Source: a virus
Lineage: Duplodnaviria > Caudoviricetes
Virus record (IMG/VR): IMGVR_UViG_3300017589_000264
Span: 1 to 34,781 of that record
Direction: 5' to 3' (one strand)
DNA: 34,781 bases
The notes below the pieces were generated by a model, which searched no databases, was not told the origin of the DNA, and was given only the letters and a program-made list of their open reading frames with translations. Positions 1,517-31,277 of the stretch are shown piece after piece. Within the stretch, counting starts at the first letter, position 1. Each line of letters opens with the position of its first letter. Made by a program: the position numbers and the translations under genes.

Positions 1517-3037
1517 TCAACTACTTTCTATCCATTTTTTGGCTCTTCTAAATTCTAAGTTCTCTGCTTCCTTAACTGTAAACACATACTTTTCACCAGA
1601 AGAATTAATTTTTGTTTTGTCATATTGTTGATCGAATGGTAAATGATATATTTTTTCTTTAGTAATTCTATTTATATTGCATTTTATCATTGGGTATTTG
1701 CCCAATTCAAAATTTTCATGTACTTCTATACCTAAAGCTTGTGCAAATTCAGTAGCTGTATCTGACAATATAGTTGAAGTATATAGCACCGCCTTAATGT
1801 TACCAATTTTATAATCTCTTGTAAATTCAGAACAATAAACATTCTCATCTAATATATACATTTGCATTGAATCATTTTTATTTTGTTCTATCCAATATTT
1901 CACCGTTGTTCCATATAATTGATTAATAGAATTTTCTCGTATCACCTTTTTTTTTGACCAGTTTTTGCACTGTACAATATGGGTAATACCATTTTTGATG
2001 CATATTAAATCACGACCTAAATCTTCATATCCTTTTATTATTCCTTGGTAATAAACTTCATACCCTTGTTTTTCGTATGTATATCCTATATACTGCTCAT
2101 ATATTTTGCCTATTTGTTGTTTGCTTTTATTTTTTAACGTATATCTGTCTAATGCTAATTGATATTTTTCAATATTTGAAAGTTTATCATATTCTTCAGT
2201 AGAAAGATAATCTTTTGCATAATCATAGTTACTATTTTTATTGTCTACTAAAGGAATATTTGCTGAGACCTCATTTTCTTTTGATTCTTCTAGAATAGGA
2301 TAAAGACTTTCATAATATTTAACAGTGTACTCTAGCATTGTTTTTTCTTTAATTAAATTTCTTTTTTCTGTATTTATACGTTTTACTTCTTGAGCGGCTT
2401 TAAATGCTGGATTAGATTTTTTAGTAAGTTGCCATGCTATGTATTCATCTTTTTCTACACAGTACTTGCTATATAAATCAACAATCCATGGAATACTATT
2501 TTCTTTATCTTTAAGTAATTTATAAAAATCTTCGTATTTTATCTGCAGTTCTTTTTCCTTCTCTTCTAGTTGCTTTTCTCTAACGTGAAGCTTTTCTTCA
2601 AATAAATTTACATTATTAATTAATTCATTATCAAAATTCGCAGCGTCTATTAAAATATTCTCACTTTTTTTTATAAGTGGATTTCTTTTAGAAGTATTAG
2701 TAGCGTTTTTAAATAATAATTTAAGCAAAAAATAATTTAATATAAAGAATATAATAATTGCAATAAATCTTATGCAAAACTCTTTAAAAAATAATTTATA
2801 TTTTAATTCAACATTAACAAAATCTAATTGACCTTTTGGTTTTACAAATATAATTTGCCCATTCTCTGGAAGATTATATATATTATAATATTCTTTATTG
2901 TAATATCCATTAGCAAATGAAACTGGACCAAAATTAGATTGAACAACTCCATAACGTTCAAAAGGTATAAAAAACATTCCAGATACTATCATAATAATTA
3001 AACAAATCATAATTATTGTTTTATTTGAAATATCCAT
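1517..3037 (-). CDS. Membrane-anchored Mrr-like (PD-(D/E)xK, D..QxK variant) endonuclease
   Basis: Two N-terminal hydrophobic segments, coiled coil, then YE...GYEV...DLGRDL...VQCKNW Mrr-type core. Confidence 0.75.
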   Translation of the reverse strand: MDISNKTIIMICLIIMIVSGMFFIPFERYGVVQSNFGPVSFANGYYNKEYYNIYNLPENGQIIFVKPKGQLDFVNVELKYKLFFKEFCIRFIAIIIFFILNYFLLKLLFKNATNTSKRNPLIKKSENILIDAANFDNELINNVNLFEEKLHVREKQLEEKEKELQIKYEDFYKLLKDKENSIPWIVDLYSKYCVEKDEYIAWQLTKKSNPAFKAAQEVKRINTEKRNLIKEKTMLEYTVKYYESLYPILEESKENEVSANIPLVDNKNSNYDYAKDYLSTEEYDKLSNIEKYQLALDRYTLKNKSKQQIGKIYEQYIGYTYEKQGYEVYYQGIIKGYEDLGRDLICIKNGITHIVQCKNWSKKKVIRENSINQLYGTTVKYWIEQNKNDSMQMYILDENVYCSEFTRDYKIGNIKAVLYTSTILSDTATEFAQALGIEVHENFELGKYPMIKCNINRITKEKIYHLPFDQQYDKTKINSSGEKYVFTVKEAENLEFRRAKKWIESS

Positions 3038-6818: not shown

Positions 6819-6923
6819 TTGAATGATATTCAAACAGAAATTGCAAAAGCATTGGAACTCATAGATGATGTTGAAAAAATGAATGCTGATGAATTTGAAA
6901 TGAAGTATGGAGGTAAGAAGTGA
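6819..6923 (+). CDS. Hypothetical protein (34 aa)
   Basis: AGGAGG RBS, TTG start; stop overlaps the next GTG start (GTGA). Confidence 0.55.
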   Translation: MNDIQTEIAKALELIDDVEKMNADEFEMKYGGKK

Positions 6924-7909
6924 AAATAGGATTAATAGATGTAGATAGTAGGCTTCCAAATTTGGCTCTAATGAAAGTATCATCATATTATAAAACAAAT
7001 GATTGTGAAGTTAAATTTGTCAGACTTGGCGAAAATTATGACAAGATATTTGCAAGCGCAATTTTTACAAGGTCAAAAGGTGAATGTCAAAAGTTGCAAG
7101 ATTATTATGGCGACAAAATAGAAATAGGCGGTACTGGATGGGATATTAAGAAAGAGTTGCCTATAGAAATTGAAAATACGAAACCAGATTATGATTTATA
7201 CACCATAGAGGACATTGTGCAAAGAATTAAAGGCATTATGACAAAAGAACGTAAATTTGAAAAAGCTACTGAATTAGTTAATGCTGGCATTGGGTTTACT
7301 TCAAGAAGTTGCATCAGAAATTGTGGATTTTGTTTCGTACCTGAAAAAGAAGGTAATTTTAGAAATGTGGCAGAAATCAAAGACCTTATTAATCCTAAAA
7401 GTAATGTCCTGATACTTAATGATAATAACTTAACCGCAGATCCATTTTGTATAGACAAGCTTCATGAAATTAGAGACAGAAAACTAGTTGTGGATATTAA
7501 TCAAGGTTGTGATGTTAGACTAATGAATGAAGATATAGCACAGGCAATGAGTGAAGTAAAGCATTTAAGAAGCATCCACTATGCATGGGATTTGATGGGG
7601 TTTGAAAGTCAAGTAATGGAAGGCATAGAAACGCTTAAAAAATACATAAAACCGTATAAACATATGTGTTTTATGCTAGTAGGATTTAATACAACTTTCG
7701 AAGAGGATATGTATAGATTTAAGAAACTTGATGAACTTGGAATCAGACCCTATGTCATGAAATACAACGAAAAAAAGGATGATGAAAGGCTCAAGCATTT
7801 TGCTAGATGGGTAGATTCTATGATATACAAAGCAGTTCCTGATTTCGAAGAATATGAGCCATGGAAAAGAGTTAAATACGATTATTATAATCAAATAAAA
7901 TTATTTTAG
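6920..7909 (+). CDS. Radical SAM enzyme
   Basis: CxxxCxxC (CIRNCGFC) after TSR; LNDNN; N-terminal PNLALMK region. Confidence 0.85.
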   Translation: MKIGLIDVDSRLPNLALMKVSSYYKTNDCEVKFVRLGENYDKIFASAIFTRSKGECQKLQDYYGDKIEIGGTGWDIKKELPIEIENTKPDYDLYTIEDIVQRIKGIMTKERKFEKATELVNAGIGFTSRSCIRNCGFCFVPEKEGNFRNVAEIKDLINPKSNVLILNDNNLTADPFCIDKLHEIRDRKLVVDINQGCDVRLMNEDIAQAMSEVKHLRSIHYAWDLMGFESQVMEGIETLKKYIKPYKHMCFMLVGFNTTFEEDMYRFKKLDELGIRPYVMKYNEKKDDERLKHFARWVDSMIYKAVPDFEEYEPWKRVKYDYYNQIKLF

Positions 7910-14861: not shown

Positions 14862-15425
14862 GTGAACACTGTTGAACCGATTAGGGATAAAAATTTAATT
14901 TTAGATTTTGCTGATTATTTGAAATGTAAGAGAGATAGAGATTATGTGCTTTTTATGTTTGGAATTTATTCTGGATTAAGAATTTCTGATATTTTACCCT
15001 TAAAGGTTAGAGATGTGAAAGATGCAGGGTTTATTTATATCACCGAAGAAAAGACAGATAAAGAAAATAAACTAATAATAAATGATGAATTGAAACCGAT
15101 AATAAAAGATTATATTATTGGTAAAAGGGATTATGAATATCTATTTAAAAGGGACAAAGGAAAGGCCTTGCCAATTACAAGGCAAAGAGTTTGGCAAATT
15201 TTAAATGATGTAGCTGATGAATTTGAATATAAAGAGAAAATTGGTTGTCATACATTAAGAAAAACTTTTGGCTATTGGATATATCAAGATACGAAAGATG
15301 CTGCAATGTTACAAGATATTTTTAAACATAGTAGCATTGAATATACAAAACGATATATTGGAGTTAATCAAGATAGTAAAAATAAAATGATTAATAATTT
15401 ATCTTTTTCTAAGAGAATTAGATAA
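14862..15425 (+). CDS. Small tyrosine recombinase (catalytic domain only)
   Basis: GLRISD (R), EEKT (K), HTLRKT (HxxR), FKHSS, TKRYIG (Y). Confidence 0.92.
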   Translation: MNTVEPIRDKNLILDFADYLKCKRDRDYVLFMFGIYSGLRISDILPLKVRDVKDAGFIYITEEKTDKENKLIINDELKPIIKDYIIGKRDYEYLFKRDKGKALPITRQRVWQILNDVADEFEYKEKIGCHTLRKTFGYWIYQDTKDAAMLQDIFKHSSIEYTKRYIGVNQDSKNKMINNLSFSKRIR

Positions 15426-18079: not shown

Positions 18080-19780
18080 TTGTTTGATAAATTAAAAGAT
18101 ACTAAGGAAACAACTGAAATATGGAATCTATACCAAAAGGGCATTGATTACATTCATAAAATTAGTTTAGTAAGTGAAACTGATGAAGCCCACAGAATGT
18201 ATACTGGAGACCAATGGTTTGGACTTCAAAGTGGTAAAGAAAAGATGCCAATGTTTAATTTTATCAAGGGTATTGTAAAATATAAAATTGCAATAGTATC
18301 TCAAAACAGTATGTCAGCTGTCTACAGTAACATGGGTTCTAAGGATGAAACGATAACAAAGGCATGTGAGGCTTTGAATGAACATTTTAGAAAGTCTTGG
18401 GAACTTGCTAAGATGGATACTTTAAGTTGGAAAGTTGTAAAAGATTCTTGTATCCAGGGTGATAGTTATTTGTTTTTTCCTAGTAGTGATGTAAAGGAGT
18501 CGCAAATACTTGATAATGTTAATGTTTTGTTAGGTGATGAAAAGAATTCTAACATCCAGGAACAGCCTTATATAATTATTGTTGAAAGGCGATTTGTAAA
18601 TGAAGTTAAGAAAGATGCTAAAAAATATGGAATCAAAAAAGATGATATTGATTTAATTGTTTCTGATGAAGATTATCAAAACCAATTAGGTGATAAAAAT
18701 GATGTTGAAAGCAAGAATGGAAAATGTACATCACTATTGTATATGTACAAGGATAAAGAAGGTATTGTTCATTTTTCAAGGAGTGTAAGAAATATAATAT
18801 ATCAACCAGATATTATATTACAATCTGCAGATAGCGAGGGTAATTTAACTGGAAGGGGACTTAAAAGATATCAGCTCATTAATTTCATTTGGGAAGACAA
18901 AAAAGGTACTGCAAGAGGTGTAGGAGAAGTAAAACAATGGATTCCTAATCAAATCGAAGTAAATAAGACTTTAGCACGTAGAAGTATTTCTATACAACAG
19001 AGTGCTTTTAGTAAGCTCGCATATGATGAGAATGCAATTAGTAATCCTGACGATTTAGATATTGTTGGTGCAAAAATTGCTATAAAAAATGGTACAGCAC
19101 AAAGCATAAATAATATGATTGCTTATCTTAATCCATCTACTATGTCATCTGATGCTAAAAACTTATCTGATGAATTAGTACTTACTTCAAAAGAATTAGC
19201 CGGTGCTGGTGACAGTGCAACTGGTGCAATAGATCCTACAAAGGCATCTGGAACAGCCATCATTGCAGTAAGAGACCAATCAGCTTTACCACTTAATGAA
19301 CAAATAACAACTTATAAGCAATTTGTTGAGGATTTAGCCTTATTATGGTATGAAATATGGGTTGCATATAATCCTAATGGATTAACTGTTGAGATGAAAG
19401 ATGAAGAACAAGGTGAATATCAATTTGTTATTCCAGCGGATGTATTAGAGGGTATGAAGGTAAATGTTAGAATTGATGTATCTCAAAATAATCCATATAG
19501 TAGATTTGCTCAAGAACAATCATTAGAAAACTTATTTGCAATGAAAGCCATATCATTTGATGAATATGTAGAGGCTTTGGATGAAGATGCAGCAGTTCCC
19601 AAAGGTAAATTACAGGATATAATTGATAAAAGGCAAGAGCAAATGAAAAAAGAAATGGAACATCAAGCACAAATTCAAGGTTTACAAAAACAGTTGCAAC
19701 AATATCAAGGGCAACTACAGCAATCAACAGATTTGATTACACAACTAGGAGGTGGTCAAGGTGAAATGCAAGCAATGTAA
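18080..19780 (+). CDS. Portal protein (P22-like)
   Basis: Position after terL; YTGDQW, FNFIK, SGTAI motifs; Q-rich C-terminal helix. Confidence 0.85.
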   Translation: MFDKLKDTKETTEIWNLYQKGIDYIHKISLVSETDEAHRMYTGDQWFGLQSGKEKMPMFNFIKGIVKYKIAIVSQNSMSAVYSNMGSKDETITKACEALNEHFRKSWELAKMDTLSWKVVKDSCIQGDSYLFFPSSDVKESQILDNVNVLLGDEKNSNIQEQPYIIIVERRFVNEVKKDAKKYGIKKDDIDLIVSDEDYQNQLGDKNDVESKNGKCTSLLYMYKDKEGIVHFSRSVRNIIYQPDIILQSADSEGNLTGRGLKRYQLINFIWEDKKGTARGVGEVKQWIPNQIEVNKTLARRSISIQQSAFSKLAYDENAISNPDDLDIVGAKIAIKNGTAQSINNMIAYLNPSTMSSDAKNLSDELVLTSKELAGAGDSATGAIDPTKASGTAIIAVRDQSALPLNEQITTYKQFVEDLALLWYEIWVAYNPNGLTVEMKDEEQGEYQFVIPADVLEGMKVNVRIDVSQNNPYSRFAQEQSLENLFAMKAISFDEYVEALDEDAAVPKGKLQDIIDKRQEQMKKEMEHQAQIQGLQKQLQQYQGQLQQSTDLITQLGGGQGEMQAM

Positions 19781-19907
19781 TACTGAAATGTTAATTGATA
19801 GTACAACTGTTGAGGAAAACAAAGAAACTTTTAATTATAAGTGTCCTAATCCTCAGTGTGGTAATTATGGATATAAAAAAGAAGAAAAAACGGAGGAAAT
19901 AAAATGA
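19761..19907 (+). CDS. Small zinc-ribbon protein (48 aa), not in ORF track
   Basis: MKCKQC...YKCPNPQC; GGAGGTGG RBS; ATGA overlap with the next gene. Confidence 0.7.
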   Translation: MKCKQCNTEMLIDSTTVEENKETFNYKCPNPQCGNYGYKKEEKTEEIK

Positions 19908-20155
19908 ACTTTGGAAAAGCTATTGAATTATTAAAAGAAGGTAAAAGGGTTGCGAGGCGAGGTTGGAATGGAAAAGGAATTTTCATTAAAATGCAAATAC
20001 AATTAATGGATAGAGGGTTTACTATGACACAACCGTTCATATATATAGATACGACAGAATTAGAAACAACTAATCCTTTAGCTCCAAAAGGTAGGGTGCC
20101 ATGGTTTGCAAGTCAAACAGATATGTTTGCTGATGATTGGATGGTAGTTGAATAA
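19904..20155 (+). CDS. tad2: DUF2829 / Tad2-like nucleotide-sponge protein
   Basis: MNFGKAIELLKEGKRVARRGWNGKG...VPWFASQTDMFADDW signature. Confidence 0.8.
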   Translation: MNFGKAIELLKEGKRVARRGWNGKGIFIKMQIQLMDRGFTMTQPFIYIDTTELETTNPLAPKGRVPWFASQTDMFADDWMVVE

Positions 20156-20592
20156 TGGAAAAGTATCTAGGCGTTAAGTTAATCGAAGCTGAACCAATAA
20201 TGTTAAATGATGCAGAAGAACATCTGAAAAAGAAAATACAGACTAATAATGAGCCAGGATATTTAATTAGATATCCTGATGGTTACGAAAGTTGGTCCCC
20301 TAAAGATGTGTTTGAAAAAGCATATATGAAAGTTGGAGACAACAATACAATCGAAGAACACAACATAAAAGAGTTTGTTAAATTCTATGATGTTAAGAAA
20401 TGGGGAGATAAGACAACAGTAGTTCATGCTATATTAGTTAATGGGTTTATTATAACTGAATCATCAAGTTGTGTAGATCCTTCTAATTTCAATATGGATA
20501 TAGGAGAGTCTATTTGCAAAGAGAAAATAAATAATAGGTTGTGGGAAATGCTAGGGTTTATGCTTCAGACAGGTGTTAAAGGAATAAAATAA
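20155..20592 (+). CDS. Two-domain protein: SWSPK domain plus N4 Gp49/Sf6 gp66-family (Acb4-like) domain
   Basis: GYLIRYPDGYESWSPKDVFEKAY; TTVV..L.NGF...ESSSCVDPSNFN..IG..IC...LWEMLGFML. Confidence 0.7.
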   Translation: MEKYLGVKLIEAEPIMLNDAEEHLKKKIQTNNEPGYLIRYPDGYESWSPKDVFEKAYMKVGDNNTIEEHNIKEFVKFYDVKKWGDKTTVVHAILVNGFIITESSSCVDPSNFNMDIGESICKEKINNRLWEMLGFMLQTGVKGIK

Positions 20593-20617
20593 AGGACTTA
20601 CAGTGTAGGTTCTTTTT
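20591..20617 (+). terminator. Terminator-like hairpin after the sponge-like genes
   Basis: AAAGGACTTAC-AGT-GTAGGTTCTTT plus T-run. Confidence 0.6.
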
Positions 20618-20668
20618 ATTTATACAAAATTATCGCAGGTAATAGCGTAAAAATACAGGGAGAGTGTT

Positions 20669-21427
20669 ATGTTTAAAAAATTAAATTTACAATTATTTGC
20701 TGAGCAAGGAATTGAAGAACCAAGCGTAGAAAATCAAGAGGTCGCTGTACTTGAAACAGATGAATTAATTGCTGGTGCAGAGAAAAATCAAGAACCAAGC
20801 GTAGAAAAGATTGATGTCGCTGAACAATCTATTGATGAATCTAAACCAAATAGGGATTTTGAAAAAGATAGTGCTTTTGCTAATATGCGTAGGCAAGTTG
20901 AACAAACAAAGAGACAAAATGAAATGCTTGCTAAAACATTTCAAAATTTTGGTTTTAATGGTACTCCAGAAGAAATCATTGACCAAGCTAATGCACATTA
21001 TCTACAAAAACCTATTGAAGAGGTTAGGCAACAAAGAATAACACAAGAACAACAGCAATCACAAGAAATGCAAAGACAAGCTGAACTTGATTTTTATAAA
21101 AGTAAAGAAATTGAAAGATTGATGAATGATGATTTACAAAGAATTCAGAAATTAGATCCTACTATAAAATCACTTAATGATTTAGGAGATGGATATTTCA
21201 ATTTAATCAAGGCTGGTGTTGATGCTGAAATGGCTTTTAATGTAATTCAACAAAAGAAACAAAGAGAAACAAAGATTCCCCCTACAGAGATAGGAAAGGT
21301 TAATTCTAAATCTAAAAGTGAAAAAGACTACTATTCACCAGAAGAAGTAGACAAGTTGTCTACTAAGGAATTAGATGATCCTAAAGTTTGGGAGAAGGTA
21401 AGAAATTCAATGACTAAATGGAAATAA
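20669..21427 (+). CDS. Capsid scaffolding protein
   Basis: Acidic and coiled-coil, directly upstream of the capsid gene; LNLQLFA leader; FANMRR. Confidence 0.8.
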   Translation: MFKKLNLQLFAEQGIEEPSVENQEVAVLETDELIAGAEKNQEPSVEKIDVAEQSIDESKPNRDFEKDSAFANMRRQVEQTKRQNEMLAKTFQNFGFNGTPEEIIDQANAHYLQKPIEEVRQQRITQEQQQSQEMQRQAELDFYKSKEIERLMNDDLQRIQKLDPTIKSLNDLGDGYFNLIKAGVDAEMAFNVIQQKKQRETKIPPTEIGKVNSKSKSEKDYYSPEEVDKLSTKELDDPKVWEKVRNSMTKWK

Positions 21428-21451: not shown

Positions 21452-22264
21452 ATGAGTTATAACAATTTTAAAGCTACTGTATGGTCTAAATACATCCAGT
21501 TAGAGCTTGAAAGAAAATGCATCCTTGCAGATTGGTGTAATAAGAAATTCGAGGGGCAAGCAAAACATAATGAAAAGGTTAAAATAATTGGAGTAGGTAC
21601 TCCAACTATAGGTAACTATACTGGAACATCTATTGGAACTCCTGAAACTATTGATGATAGCTCTGTATTCATGACTATTGATCAAGCTAAATTTTTCAAC
21701 TTTATGGTTGATGATATTGATAAAGCACAGGCTCAACCTGGACTTATGGAAGCAATTTTGACTAATACAACAAGAGCTATGGCTATTGTAAGAGATAAAC
21801 ATGTTGCATCAAGGGCGGTTGAAGCTGGTTCGATTAGTTCATCTAAAAAAATAACAACGGCTGCTGAGGCTAAGACAGCTATTGATGAAGGTATATTAGC
21901 TTTAAGAGAAAAAGATGTTGAATTGGATATGGAAGTAGTAATTGAAATTCCGTATTTTGTTTACTTATTGTTTAAAGACAAGTTAGTTGAACTTAAAACT
22001 AACAATGATGAACTTATAAAAAAAGGAATCGTAGGAATGTATGACAACTGTTATGTAAGAACATCAAATAATCTTTACAATGATGGAACTGATACTCATT
22101 GTATGATTAGAACTAAAGATGCTATTGCGTTTGCAGGTGGAATTGATAAAACAGAAGCATATAGACCTGAATCATTGTTCTCTGATGCAATGAAGGGCTT
22201 AAATACTTTTGGTGGAAAAGTTGTAAGACCTAAAGAACTTTACGTAATTAAAGCACATAAATAG
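21452..22264 (+). CDS. Major capsid protein (HK97 fold, P22-coat-like)
   Basis: NFKATVWS, TIDQAKFFNFMVDDIDKAQ, FSDAMKGL..FGGKVVRP. Confidence 0.88.
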   Translation: MSYNNFKATVWSKYIQLELERKCILADWCNKKFEGQAKHNEKVKIIGVGTPTIGNYTGTSIGTPETIDDSSVFMTIDQAKFFNFMVDDIDKAQAQPGLMEAILTNTTRAMAIVRDKHVASRAVEAGSISSSKKITTAAEAKTAIDEGILALREKDVELDMEVVIEIPYFVYLLFKDKLVELKTNNDELIKKGIVGMYDNCYVRTSNNLYNDGTDTHCMIRTKDAIAFAGGIDKTEAYRPESLFSDAMKGLNTFGGKVVRPKELYVIKAHK

Positions 22265-26534: not shown

Positions 26535-29500
26535 ATGAAATATACACCAGAAGATATTGAAAAAATATATCAAGATAGTAAAAATAAACTTTTGCCCACT
26601 AAAAATAGTTGGCCAGTTCAAACGGTTGTAAGGAAAAATAGTAACGTTGGTGTTTTACCAACTAAAGCTCAACAAGAATTAAGTTTTACAGATAAAATTA
26701 CTCAACCTATAAAAAATATAAAGTCTAATTATACTGTTGGTAAATTATCAGAGGAAGAAAATCAAGCATGGTCTAAATATAGATCTAGTCAATCTCAAGA
26801 TAATTTAAAACTTGCTCAAAATACAACGGATGTAAAGACAAAATATATTGAAAAAAACAAAGTGGGCCAAGGAAATTTATTAACAAAAGATTTTGCTCAA
26901 TATGTACCACAAATGATAGGTCAAATAGGGTCAGGTTTAAAAGGTGCAGGTGATACAGCTTTAAAAGGTGCTGCTGTTGGTGCTGGTACTGCGTTAATAG
27001 CAGGTCAAATGGGACCCCAAGTGTTAGCACCGGAAGAATTAATTACTGTGCCCGGTGGAGCAATAACGGGTGCCGTATTTGGTGGTAAAGCAGGTTATAT
27101 GAAAGGTGTTGCAGAATACAGCTATGACAGTATGGCTGGTTCTGCTTATAAAGGTTTGATTGATCTAGGTGTACCAAATAATATAGCTTTAAAAGTATCA
27201 GGTGATGAAGCTTTGGTTAGCTCTTTAATTGAAGCAGCTGGAGCTGGAGTTGATATTGCAAGTTTAGGCATAGGTAAACTATTATCAAAAGGTGGTACAA
27301 ATGCAGCAAGTAAAGTGGCAAAAAATAAACTTGTTTCTGCATTAAAGGCTTATGGCATTAACATAGCATCTGAGGGACTTGAAGAAGGATTACAAGAGAA
27401 GGTATCTATTGAAAGCGAAAAGAAAGCTATGGGGCAATCTGGAATTATAAGGACTGCTTCAGAACAAGAAGATTTACAAAGAATATTAGAGTCTGCTAAA
27501 GGTGGAGCTGCTATTGCTACTATTAGTGGTGGTGGAAATGCAATTGGTAATGTTGCAGTCAATACTATTAACAATAGACAGATAAAAAACAATCAAATGA
27601 AGAATTATACTAGCAAGAACATAGATAGCATAAAAACTCAAAATATTGACTCTAGTGAAGTTAATACTTTACCTGTGCAAGAAATAAAAAAAGAAAGATT
27701 TATACCAAGGTTAAAGGCAGTAAATGAAGCTTTTAAAAATGAAAATTTTGTTGAAACGCAAAATGAAGATAAGATTAATGATATTATTGCAAGGCGCAAA
27801 CAAAGTATTGCAGCAAAAGAAACTTCAAGTGATGTAATTCAAAATATTCCAATTTCAAATTCTGTAGAAATCAATACTAGTAGCAAGGCTCAAAAGTATC
27901 AAAAAAGGCAAGAAAATTACTTTGTAAAAGATATTGCTGATTCTTTGGGTATTTCTAGGTATGCTGATAAAAGTAGCTTAAAAGGCATGGTTAATGAACT
28001 TACAACTGAATTAAAAACAAATGAAGTTGTTGCTCCTGAAAAGATTGATAAATTGTTCAATACTATTGTTGAAGATGGAATTCAGGTTGATTTTAGTTTC
28101 TATAATAAATATAGAGATTTAAAGGACCAGGTAAGGAATACAAAGTTATATGTTAGTGATGATGTTAAAGCTGATTTTGATAAAGGTGAATATAACAGTT
28201 TTAGGAAAACAAATTTAGGAAATTTAACATTAACAAAAGATAAAGGTTCCATGCAAATTGACAGTTACTATCAAGAGTTAAGTGAAAACAATCCTGATTT
28301 TTTTCCAAAAGATATAGTTCATCCTGCTGATCAGTTAAGACAAATAGCTGATGTACAAAATAGCATTGTTAAAACAGAAAACAATCTTGCTCTATACATT
28401 GATAATGATGTTGAATATAAAGAATGGGCTAGACGTGAATTTGATGTTGCTGTTGAAAAATTATCAAAAGAAGCTAAGCAAGTTAAAAAGGTACAGGATG
28501 AAAAGGCTGCTAGGATAGAAGAAAAAGCAATTAACAAAGAAATGGTAGCTAATACTAAGGCAGAAGACATGCATGAAGTTTATAGGATGAAACAAATGTA
28601 TCAAAAGCAATATGATAGTGCAGTGAGAAAAGAGATATTGACTAAAAGAGATAGTAAATTTGTTGATATGCTTGTAGATGGTGATATTACGATAGATGAT
28701 TTACCTAGTAATGTTAACAAAGGTGGAATAATTAATATTTATAAGACAAAAGAGCCTTTGAAAAATATTGATAAATCAATTAAGGATTATAATAGATCTC
28801 ATAAATCTGTTATGAGAGAGAAAGCTGATGAATTGATTAGTAATACTGATACATGGAAGGATAAGGCAAGTGGTTTCCAATATCAACGTGAAACTATGGA
28901 AAGAAACATAAGAGATATAGTACCTAACAAACAAGAGGCAAATGCTATAACAGAAACATATTTTACTCCAATACATGAAAATGAAGCTAAAGCAACTAAA
29001 TTAAAAAATAGTATGCGTGATGTTGTTAGAAAAATTAATTTGCAAAATAAAAATATTTATGAAGTGGCCTATGAAGCAGAAAATGGATTACCTTTTATAA
29101 AAAAGGTATCTGAAAGAGCATTGGTACAACTTTTAGGTGAAGGTAAAATAAAAAATGACATGATAAAAAAGAGTGGTGCTGATGTAAATAAGATTGAAAA
29201 TGCTGTTAAGGAATTTAGGGGTATTTATGATAAATTGATTACTGAGTCTAACAATGTTTTAATCGAAAACGGTTATTCACCAGTAGAATATAGAAAAGAT
29301 TATTTTCCACACTTTACTGATGATAAGCCTGATAATTTACTTAACAAAATAGGGAGATTGGTTGGGATAGATGTTGACACTAAAGAACTACCAATGGACA
29401 TAGCTGGTTTAACTCATACTTTTAAACCAGGCAAGAGGTGGGTAGGTAACTTTTTACAAAGAACTTCTGATGTAACTGAATATGATGCTGTACAAGGTTT

Positions 29501-31277
29501 TGATAGATACATTGAGGGTGTGTCTGATGTGATACATCACACAGAGGATATTCAAAGACTTAGAGCGCTTGAAGACTCGTTAAGGTATAAACACTCAAGT
29601 GATGGAATAAAGGCCGAAATTGACAAGATAAGAGAAATTGACACTATATCTGAATTGGATAAAGTTAATAGAATTGAAGAAATATATAAGATTGATAAAA
29701 GTAAGTTGCCACACTTTGTTACTGAACTTAGAAACTATACCGATAATTTAGCTGGTAAAAAAGCTCTTGGTGATAGAGATGTCGAACATGTAGTTGGACG
29801 TAAAATTTATGGTTTAGCAAAATGGTTTGAAAATAGAGTAGCATCTAATATGGTTGCTGTTAATCCTGGTAGTTGGTTAACAAACTTTATTCCTTTAACA
29901 CAGGGAATGGGTGGTGTTAAAACTACAAATCTTTTGAATGGAATGAAAGATACTATTAGTTCTTATGCTAAAAATGATATGTTAGCTGATAGAAGTACAT
30001 TTTTAGTTAATCGTAAAGGCAGTGAACCACTTATTAAAACAAAATTAGAAAAGGTTAGTAATACTTTGTCTAGCCCTATGCAAATAATAGATAGTTTTAC
30101 TTCTGAAACTTTGGTAAGAGCTAGATACTATGAAAATATGCGTAATGGTATGCCAGATATTGATGCCATGAAGGACGCTGATAAATGGGTTGCTGGGGTT
30201 ATGGCGGACAGATCAAAAGGTTCATTACCAACTAAATTTAACAAAAAGAATCCTGCTTCGAATGCTTTTAATATGTTTCAATTAGAAGTAAATAATCAAT
30301 TAAGTTATTATTTTAAAGATGTACCAGATGATTTAAAAGAAAAAGGTGTTGCAGCATTGGCTATGGCTTTTACTAAAATGTTTGTTGGTTCCTGGTTGTA
30401 TAATCAACTTTATGAAAAATTAACTGGTAGGAGAGCAGCACTAGACCCTATTGATTTAATATCTACTGCGATAGGTGATTTTAAAGATAAGGATAAAAAG
30501 ACTTATCAAGCTGTAGCAAATACTGCTAAGGGTGTTGTTCAAGAAATGCCTTTTGTTGGAGGTTTAATTGGTGGTGGTAGGTTGCCTATTTCATCCGCTA
30601 TCCCTGATGTAGAAAATACAGTTAAATCAATTACCGGTCTTGCAACTGGTGAAATGCCTACCAATAAAGCTTTGAATGTACTGGGTAAAGAAGTTGCTAA
30701 GCCGGCTACATATTTTCTGTTACCTTTTGGTGGTGGACAAGTTAAAAAGGCAGTGGAAGGTATTAGTACTGTTAATAAAGGTGGTAGTTTTGGTATTGAT
30801 AGTCAAGGTAGAGATACTTTGCAGTTTCCAGTAGAAAAGAATTTAGGTAATTATGCGAAGTCAAGTTTGTTTGGTAAATACTCATTGCCTACTGCAAAGG
30901 ACTATATTGATAGTGGATTTAAATCTTTGAGTGGACCATATACGGAAAAATATAAGGATGCTTTGAGTACTGGTTTTACATCTGATCAGTTTTTAAACTC
31001 TTATAAAGCACAGAAAGAAGCAGAGAGTGATAAGGATAGGGATGGTAATACTATTTATCTTTCTTTAGCTAGTAATAAGAAAAAGGCTATTGATGATGCT
31101 AATAAGGGTATGAGTAAAGAAAGACTTGAGAAGTTATATTCATATTTTGATGTATCTGAAAAGTTATGGAAGGATGAAGTTAAGAAAGATGTTAAAAAGG
31201 ATAAGCAAAATTCTTTACCTACTATTAAATCTATTACAGTGAATAGAAAATTACCTACTATAAAGAAAAAGGAGTGA
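26535..31277 (+). CDS. Large internal virion / ejection protein (1580 aa)
   Basis: G/A-rich N-terminal region, YFPH motif, helical C-terminus; no tape-measure-like periodicity seen. Confidence 0.6.

Follow-up and report, generated by a model that had tools for sequence, protein, structure and literature searches.

We analysed a 34,781-nt stretch of a tailed-phage record (Duplodnaviria, Caudoviricetes; IMG/VR IMGVR_UViG_3300017589_000264, positions 1 to 34,781), referred to here as the window. The record is a provirus, and scans of the window with Pfam and PHROG profiles detected genes for integrase, repressor, replication, terminase, portal, capsid, tail-fibre and lysis functions. Between the portal gene and a putative scaffold gene lie three short open reading frames (ORF-A, ORF-B and ORF-C) and a terminal hairpin, which a first-pass annotation had read as a translationally coupled cassette of putative proteins that sequester immune signals (sponges). 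The coupled arrangement is real, with ATGA and TAATG overlaps confirmed on the plus strand. Comparison with related loci places ORF-B and ORF-C in a slot with cargo that is exchanged between phage lineages. The cargo of the window consists of a Tad2-family protein and an Acb4-family domain, the latter joined to an N-terminal domain, here called X, that recurs with several sponge folds. The features of the locus are as follows.

18080..19780, plus strand: portal gene, the left flank of the slot (PF16510, E = 1.3e-8; phrog_156 portal, E = 7e-19); its 3' end contains the start of ORF-A, with which it shares its final 20 nt
19761..19907, plus strand: ORF-A, a 48-aa zinc ribbon with four cysteines (CxxC...CxxxxC); GTG start, with AGGAGGT at 19747-19753
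19904..20155, plus strand: ORF-B, an 83-aa Tad2-family protein; ATGA overlap with ORF-A, with GGAGG at 19892-19896
20155..20592, plus strand: ORF-C, a 145-aa two-domain protein; TAATG overlap with ORF-B
20155..20340, plus strand: domain X (ORF-C residues 1-62), a small beta domain homologous to the RyR Tad N-domain
20350..20592, plus strand: Acb4-family (PF13876) domain (ORF-C residues 66-145)
20591..20615, plus strand: terminator-like hairpin of 11 pairs with a T-run, which closes the slot
20633..20654, plus strand: conserved element of the TCGC-N7-9-GCG-AAAAAT type, between the terminator and the scaffold start
20669..21427, plus strand: putative scaffold gene, the right flank of the slot, assigned by position (no Pfam match)
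21452-22264, plus strand: major capsid gene, 3' of the putative scaffold gene (phrog_267, E = 1e-41)

A slot for sponge genes in the head operon

Slot loci were collected with portal and zinc-ribbon searches and then read gene by gene. A known sponge domain (Tad1, Tad2, Acb2-like, Acb4 or Sequestin) occupies the slot in nine of ten close cargo-bearing lineages, Sequestin having been assigned in L093, L108 and L117 from likeness by eye and from BLAST among these loci. The cargo is listed below; Y denotes a second family (phrog_419, PGDYG-like) that is considered together with X.

Window: Tad2 and X-Acb4
L086/87: Tad1 (PDB match, E = 1e-49) and a 78-aa protein
L088: Acb2-like (PF24729, E = 7e-24)
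L090: an HExxH protein and X-Tad2
L091: Y, an in-frame TAG, then Tad2
L093/117: X-Acb4 and Sequestin
L095/112: two unassigned genes, X-Tad2 and Y
L108: a 75-aa protein and Sequestin
L113: Tad2, with the locus cut by the contig end
L116: Y alone

The portal–scaffold site is an exchangeable sponge slot. The scaffold N terminus is the same in L116 as in L093/117, yet the cargo differs, and in Clostridium phage CP51 Tad2 and X-Acb4 are found at a similar position. In more distant lineages the slot is either empty (L096-98, L103, L110, L111 and L115) or consists of one 61-66-aa gene, the product of which looks helical by eye (L099-102); in L089 the slot lacks the zinc ribbon as well. The phages that bear the slot are temperate and probably infect Firmicutes. 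A similar arrangement is the anti-signalling hotspot of N4-like phages, which extends from the primase to the virion RNA polymerase (vRNAP) gene and is likewise a fixed site with varying Tad2, Acb4, Sequestin and unassigned genes (10.64898/2026.06.04.730250). The slot described here differs in that it lies inside the head operon of temperate phages and holds zero to four short genes.

ORF-A is a real conserved gene, with four cysteines that are invariant in five of five aligned sequences; it has no Pfam match above the cut-off, and its Atlas neighbours are without names. The zinc ribbon overlaps the end of the portal gene in 21 of the 26 loci retrieved with its alignment; among the other five, three lack BLAST confirmation and two (L106 and L107, with 39% identity in an unrelated context) were discarded as chance matches. 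L109 and L114 stop just past the zinc-ribbon gene and were left out of the cargo scoring. In 11 loci (L096-L103, L110, L111 and L115) the zinc ribbon precedes the scaffold gene without a sponge in between, so that it is not gained and lost together with sponge cargo. The first-pass annotation had counted the zinc ribbon as a member of the anti-defence cassette; its retention at the portal end in these sponge-less loci does not bear this out, and an anti-defence role has no support. The most fitting reading is that the gene belongs to the core of the head module in this phage clade, and it may additionally couple the translation of the cargo.

The terminal hairpin can be assigned in the same way. 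A T-run with an adjoining stem lies 5' of the scaffold gene in 11 of the 12 intergenic regions examined, including those of empty-slot relatives. The hairpin that was thought to close the cassette therefore exists, but belongs to the head module and not to the cargo, and the cargo appears to insert upstream of a pre-existing terminator. Counted alone, such sites are not significant (three sites with a hairpin and T-run in 3.5 kb, compared with 1.3 +/- 1.2 in shuffles). We propose that cargo genes enter 3' of the zinc-ribbon gene and 5' of the terminator, where they would be translated by coupling. The TCGC-N7-9-GCG-AAAAAT element also precedes the scaffold gene in 11 of the 12 intergenic regions; the copy in the window at 20633-20654 matched no Rfam family, the only Rfam hit being a chance snoRNA (E = 1.8), and a role as a late promoter or regulator site is possible. 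A TATAAT at 19618-19623 was rejected as a promoter of the cassette, as it lies within portal codons and is not retained in most relatives. From the gene position and the terminator, we infer late co-transcription of the cargo with the terminase and portal genes.

Several other genes in or near the slot were recorded. L086:4366-4602 and L108:287-514 encode a 75-78-aa family (54% alike, no Pfam match) that sits beside Tad1 or Sequestin and is a candidate inhibitor. A 68-76-aa family (L095:1380-1610 and L090:604-810, alike by eye) and a 116-aa HExxH protein (L090:2644-2994) lie in or near the slot, and the 61-66-aa gene (L099:678-878) is found with and without sponges. The slot Tad1 (L086:3976-4353) matches PDB 8y6v chain I, named gp184 (E = 2.7e-7); we take this entry to be a jumbo-phage capsid, which would put a Tad1-like protein in the virion.

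Predicted ligands of the Tad2 and Acb4 proteins

ORF-B matches DUF2829 (PF11195; E = 6e-24, 84.8 bits against a cut-off of 25) and seven Tad2 sequences in the PDB (E = 4e-14 to 2e-9); the profile, the PDB matches and the literature all confirm the earlier identification of DUF2829 with Tad2. All the residues checked in the HgmTad2 pocket for glycocyclic ADP-ribose (gcADPR) are kept in ORF-B, with W21, N22, G23, W67, S70, T72 and D73 corresponding to W21, N22, G23, W87, S90, T92 and D93 (7 of 7). In HgmTad2 these residues hold gcADPR, and a long insertion makes the cyclic-dinucleotide pocket (10.1101/2023.11.15.567273). Sequence comparison shows that ORF-B lacks the insertion of 35-41 residues between beta2 and beta5 that characterizes the cyclic-dinucleotide-binding HgmTad2/SptTad2 subtype, and has ~13 residues after beta2 instead. 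Tad2 had been expected to bind gcADPR and some cyclic dinucleotides; the first part agrees with the conserved pocket, whereas cyclic-dinucleotide binding by ORF-B is unlikely because the pocket-forming insertion is absent.

Among the part of the Table S2 Tad2 rows of a Tad2 survey that was compared by eye, Tad2_71 is the most alike (10.1101/2025.08.24.671296): ORF-B is ~61% identical to it (50 of 82 positions in a hand alignment) and shares its distinctive YIDTTxLxTxNP segment. Tad2_71 is active against Thoeris of types I, II and IV (10.1101/2025.08.24.671296). Judged from its sequence, ORF-B is likely to have a broad anti-Thoeris role. As a tetramer it would sequester 3' cyclic ADP-ribose (3'cADPR), and probably also His-ADPR and N7-cADPR, as Tad2_71 does; sequestration of at least one of these three signals is a prediction that we make with high confidence. 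Solved Tad2 relatives of ORF-B are ModTad2 (9EIB), SPO1 Gp34.65 (8SME) and HgmTad2 (8KBI).

Residues 66-139 of ORF-C match PF13876 (E = 9e-21, 74.7 bits against a cut-off of 27), which is the Acb4 family (10.1101/2024.12.30.630793). A profile built from 116 homologues of this domain matches the SPO1 Acb4 structure 9E4W (E = 2.4e-6). For the AlphaFold model of ORF-C (pLDDT, for predicted local distance difference test, of 96.5), Foldseek ranks 1-10 are all 9E4W, and the VIA fold search also places 9E4W first (Z = 7.8, root-mean-square deviation 3.1, 75 residues aligned). The earlier equation of the N4 Gp49/Sf6 gp66 family with Acb4 is thus borne out by profile, PDB, fold and literature. Unlike ORF-C, the SPO1 protein does not carry a domain X at its N terminus; the X-Acb4 architecture is found also in crAssphage KP06_gp41 and in Clostridium phage CP51.

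With the PDB chain taken as offset by one from the published numbering, 5 of the 10 residues of SPO1 Acb4 that contact 3'3'-cyclic GMP–AMP (3'3'-cGAMP) are identical in ORF-C (K36, F48, F62, N63 and I66). The guanine-reading E49 of SPO1 corresponds to Ile99 of ORF-C, and the 116 homologues have Ile (67), Val (23) or Glu (20) at this position; because E49 is replaced by Ile, the base preference of ORF-C may differ. All eight diverse Acb4 homologues assayed bound cGAMP (10.1101/2024.12.30.630793). As a tetramer, the Acb4 domain of ORF-C would probably bind cyclic dinucleotides, and its base preference may be altered.

Domain X is a recurrent partner of sponges

Domain X carries the motif GYxxxYxDGYxSWSPKxVFExAY (ORF-C residues 35-57) and matches no Pfam family. 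The first-pass annotation had called this N-terminal domain unassigned; it is, however, homologous to the N-domain of vB_PatP_CB1 gp68 (RyR Tad), which has already been crystallised and assayed (35% identity over 66 aa, E = 5e-9; both match phrog_9467, 872 and 18865). The gp68 N-domain (gp68_N) was described as a fold of unknown function that often occurs as a single ORF and that forms a beta1-swapped dimer in the crystal (10.64898/2026.06.04.730250). In gp68, X is joined to RyR and lies beside the primase gene, whereas here it is joined to Acb4 in a head operon; the available sections of the RyR Tad preprint are silent on fusion of the N-domain to other sponge families.

The family is large, with 4,771 clusters at 50% identity (E up to 0.001) and 118 annotated phage records. 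Hidden Markov models (HMMs) detect a fused Acb4, Tad2 or Sequestin domain beside X in 75 of the 80 top viral loci, and by eye another three appear to be fusions; fusion to a sponge is seen in 37 of 42 top viral loci after merging at 90% and in 16 of 17 long homologues, although all of these counts rest on best-scoring matches, which favour close relatives. Further fusion partners of X are Acb2/Tad1, RyR and Lockin (two rows). These fusions support the earlier suggestion that the N-domain is a candidate for a further anti-defence activity. Fusion to sponges is the criterion by which Sequestin (PF21825) was found, and the Tad2-Acb4 and Acb4-Sequestin fusions in that report follow the same multi-sponge logic; its Sequestin table contains SWSPK 198 times and SWSPA 29 times, and two rows of its Lockin table contain X motifs (10.1101/2025.07.12.664507). 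A Pfam-based fusion search would be expected to miss X, because X has no Pfam model.

The monomer model of X (pLDDT of 86) is a small beta domain of three strands, whereas Sequestin is all-helical and 60-80 aa long, and X had no match to PF21825 at E values of up to 1. Identity of X with Sequestin, Tad2, Acb4 or WDGH was rejected, given the lack of a Pfam match and hhalign probabilities of <0.3%; a Pertussis_S1 Pfam match (E = 0.27) was dismissed as chance. Solved structures gave no sequence match to X, and the best fold match had a Z of 3.9.

Stand-alone copies of X form a second context. A stand-alone X query returned 66 stand-alone and 14 fused copies among 80 loci, largely redundant gut-phage records with 30 distinct X-ORF ends among the 80. 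For nearly all stand-alone copies (61 of 66), a long ORF lies upstream at a distance of at most 30 nt, and the upstream genes sampled all encode lysins (8 of 8), of several catalytic types; the one in L251 is 343 nt away.

X is thus small, phage-encoded and both sponge-fused and stand-alone, and in these traits it matches viral sponges. Its invariant residues are G6, G35, Y40, Y44, W47, S48, P49, K50 and F53. The retention of this aromatic-polar motif across unrelated heads and hosts favours a common small ligand, and the conservation of stand-alone X, together with partners that work without it, disfavours a passive dimer tag. We consider it fairly likely that X dimerises by strand swapping, as gp68 does in the crystal, and has an independent anti-defence activity, and give slightly less than even chances to the more specific proposal that it binds, through the invariant residues, a small immune signal other than the gcADPR of type I Thoeris.

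Other architectures that contain X were also observed. P0139-P0142 and L077 encode a four-domain X-WDGH-Sequestin-Tad2 protein, in which WDGH (PF25311) is a candidate anti-defence module. Seven of the 150 representatives (P0168, P0184, P0189, P0191, P0204, P0210 and P0297) have a recurring, unnamed segment C-terminal to X. P0153 is an amidase-glucosaminidase with a C-terminal X, probably an endolysin run together with the usual downstream stand-alone X.

Alternative roles for domain X

X could instead be a reduced Dec-like capsid binder that docks on the coat or procapsid and either tethers the sponge at the site of capsid sensing or masks the trigger; a staphylococcal Thoeris is reported to sense capsids (PMC12578639). 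The proposal draws on a bridge through phrog_11049, a profile that all 83 X sequences match (E = 9.5e-8 for the copy in the window, at profile positions 68-96) and that the N-domains of Dec match weakly, at overlapping positions (phage L, E = 0.019; the homologue L360, E = 5e-4; L362, E = 0.14). X-family genes H177-H180 and H187 were deposited as 'Dec protein' or 'decoration protein', and the predicted strands and helix of X align by eye with beta1, beta4, beta5 and the last helix of Dec. X genes are frequent in head or lysis operons, like dec of phage L. PDB entry 6E3C is presumably phage L Dec. Homologues that carry the 6E3C domain were discarded in the Tad2 survey (10.1101/2025.08.24.671296). 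The N-terminal OB (oligonucleotide/oligosaccharide-binding)-fold domain of phage L Dec (PMC6449081) shares with X the weak phrog_11049 bridge, a similar order of secondary structure and a late-operon position. However, direct comparison of the X profile with Dec gave scores not above those of shuffled controls (hhalign probability of 0.3%), and scans for bridging sequences from gp68_N and from Dec recovered close relatives only. Dec is not among the 50 fold matches listed for X, which does not exclude kinship. The strongest capsid contacts of Dec, K30 and Y49 (PMC6449081), fall where X is variable or missing, and X is without the trimerising spike. X also keeps ~40-50% identity across very different heads (crAss, N4-like, P22-like and clostridial), and some X genes lie in replication regions. 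Kinship of X and Dec is plausible and capsid binding by X is less plausible than that; as an explanation of X, the capsid binder is unlikely.

A somewhat more doubtful proposal is that X is a passive strand-swapped module for dimerisation or folding, which stabilises or cross-links the oligomers of sponges but lacks a target itself. In its favour, the gp68 crystal is a beta1-swapped dimer and X alone is inactive against type I Thoeris (10.64898/2026.06.04.730250); in addition, no domain was detected ahead of X in any of the 80 top viral loci, and residues 1-10 are unpaired in both monomer models. Stand-alone X genes of full length are nevertheless kept next to lysins of several unrelated kinds, away from any known sponge, and the partners oligomerise and function without it: gp68_C is active by itself, the Acb4 domain alone is a tetramer and the Sequestin domain alone is a dimer (10.64898/2026.06.04.730250). 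The invariant aromatic-polar motif also appears more constrained than a dimer interface would need.

A third alternative, in which X would block a defence protein through direct contact, in the fashion of Tad3-Tad8, and not by small-molecule binding, is improbable. In its favour, the weak fold matches of X are to small barrels that bind proteins (Mfd/CarD RNA polymerase-interaction domains, Z = 3.9 and 3.7; Tudor/chromo, Z ~3), and non-sponge inhibitors co-cluster with sponges in N4-like hotspots (10.64898/2026.06.04.730250). Every Z is, however, <4 and uninformative; conservation over many host phyla is easier to reconcile with a universal ligand than with a host protein, and the great majority of the known fusion partners bind ligands.

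A relationship of X to family Y is only suggestive. Comparison of X with Y gave an hhalign probability of 29%, over the last helix only, and PGDYG-annotated models are among the weak viral fold matches of X. Overall, Y has weaker ties to sponges than X has, being fused to them in 10 of 80 cases and neighbouring them in 7 of 80, yet it occupies the slot three times. Copies of Y (weak PGDYG match) lie at L116:446-715 and L091:2656-3198, and P0146 is a Y-X-Acb4 fusion. The Y motif is present in the published Sequestin and Lockin tables as well (10.1101/2025.07.12.664507).

Interpretation and significance

We lean towards reading the stretch as an exchangeable slot that carries a Tad2 directed at Thoeris signals and an Acb4 directed at signals of CBASS (the anti-phage signalling system based on cyclic oligonucleotides), both made late, with X as a third anti-defence module. 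Several observations weigh against this reading or parts of it. In the one direct test found, gp68_N alone had no apparent activity on type I Thoeris (10.64898/2026.06.04.730250). The less biased figure for fusion is low: only 44 of the 150 top 50%-representatives of X have a Pfam sponge domain, and 62 have no extra segment, some of them perhaps cut by contig ends. HMMs found a known sponge within 2 kb of stand-alone X in 0 of 66 loci, so these redundant records provide no guilt by association, and the weak link between X and Dec offers a function other than that of a sponge. In ORF-C, the other 5 of the 10 SPO1 Acb4 contacts are changed (E49I, V56C, Y57V, T70I and K81E). No promoter of the cassette was found, with 12 sigma70-like sites compared with 18.5 expected, and late expression is not general, as X fusions of N4-like and crAss phages adjoin replication genes.

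The Tad2 and Acb4 genes of the window are new members of known families and, as such, ordinary. What is new is the swapping of cargo in the slot and the context of stand-alone X; X itself is already in print as the unexplained domain of RyR Tad. In the literature outside subscription journals only a 2026 preprint was relevant, and we found no description there of X fusions across sponge families or of the head-operon slot.

The thousands of X clusters span crAssphage, N4-like, P22-like and gut Firmicutes phages. A tentative extension is that X, perhaps with Y, constitutes a very large unrecognised sponge family that shares ancestry with Dec and has a ligand outside current panels. Sponges have been used previously to discover immune signals. 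X is joined to six sponge folds and is also kept alone, and a ligand pulled from it could expose a new signalling defence pathway. The slot could serve as a guilt-by-association source of inhibitors, with a shortlist that consists of Y, the 75-78-aa family, the 68-76-aa family and the HExxH protein. The slot further suggests that sponge production in temperate phages is timed to coincide with head assembly.

Other genes of the window

Four further genes of the window were noted. A 506-aa protein encoded at 1517-3037 on the minus strand adjoins the integrase gene, its sole PHROG match being weak ('membrane associated'), and a 1,580-aa protein encoded at 26535-31277 has no PHROG match. A radical SAM gene lies at 6920-7909, and a second integrase-family gene at 14862-15425, 5' of the terminase gene.

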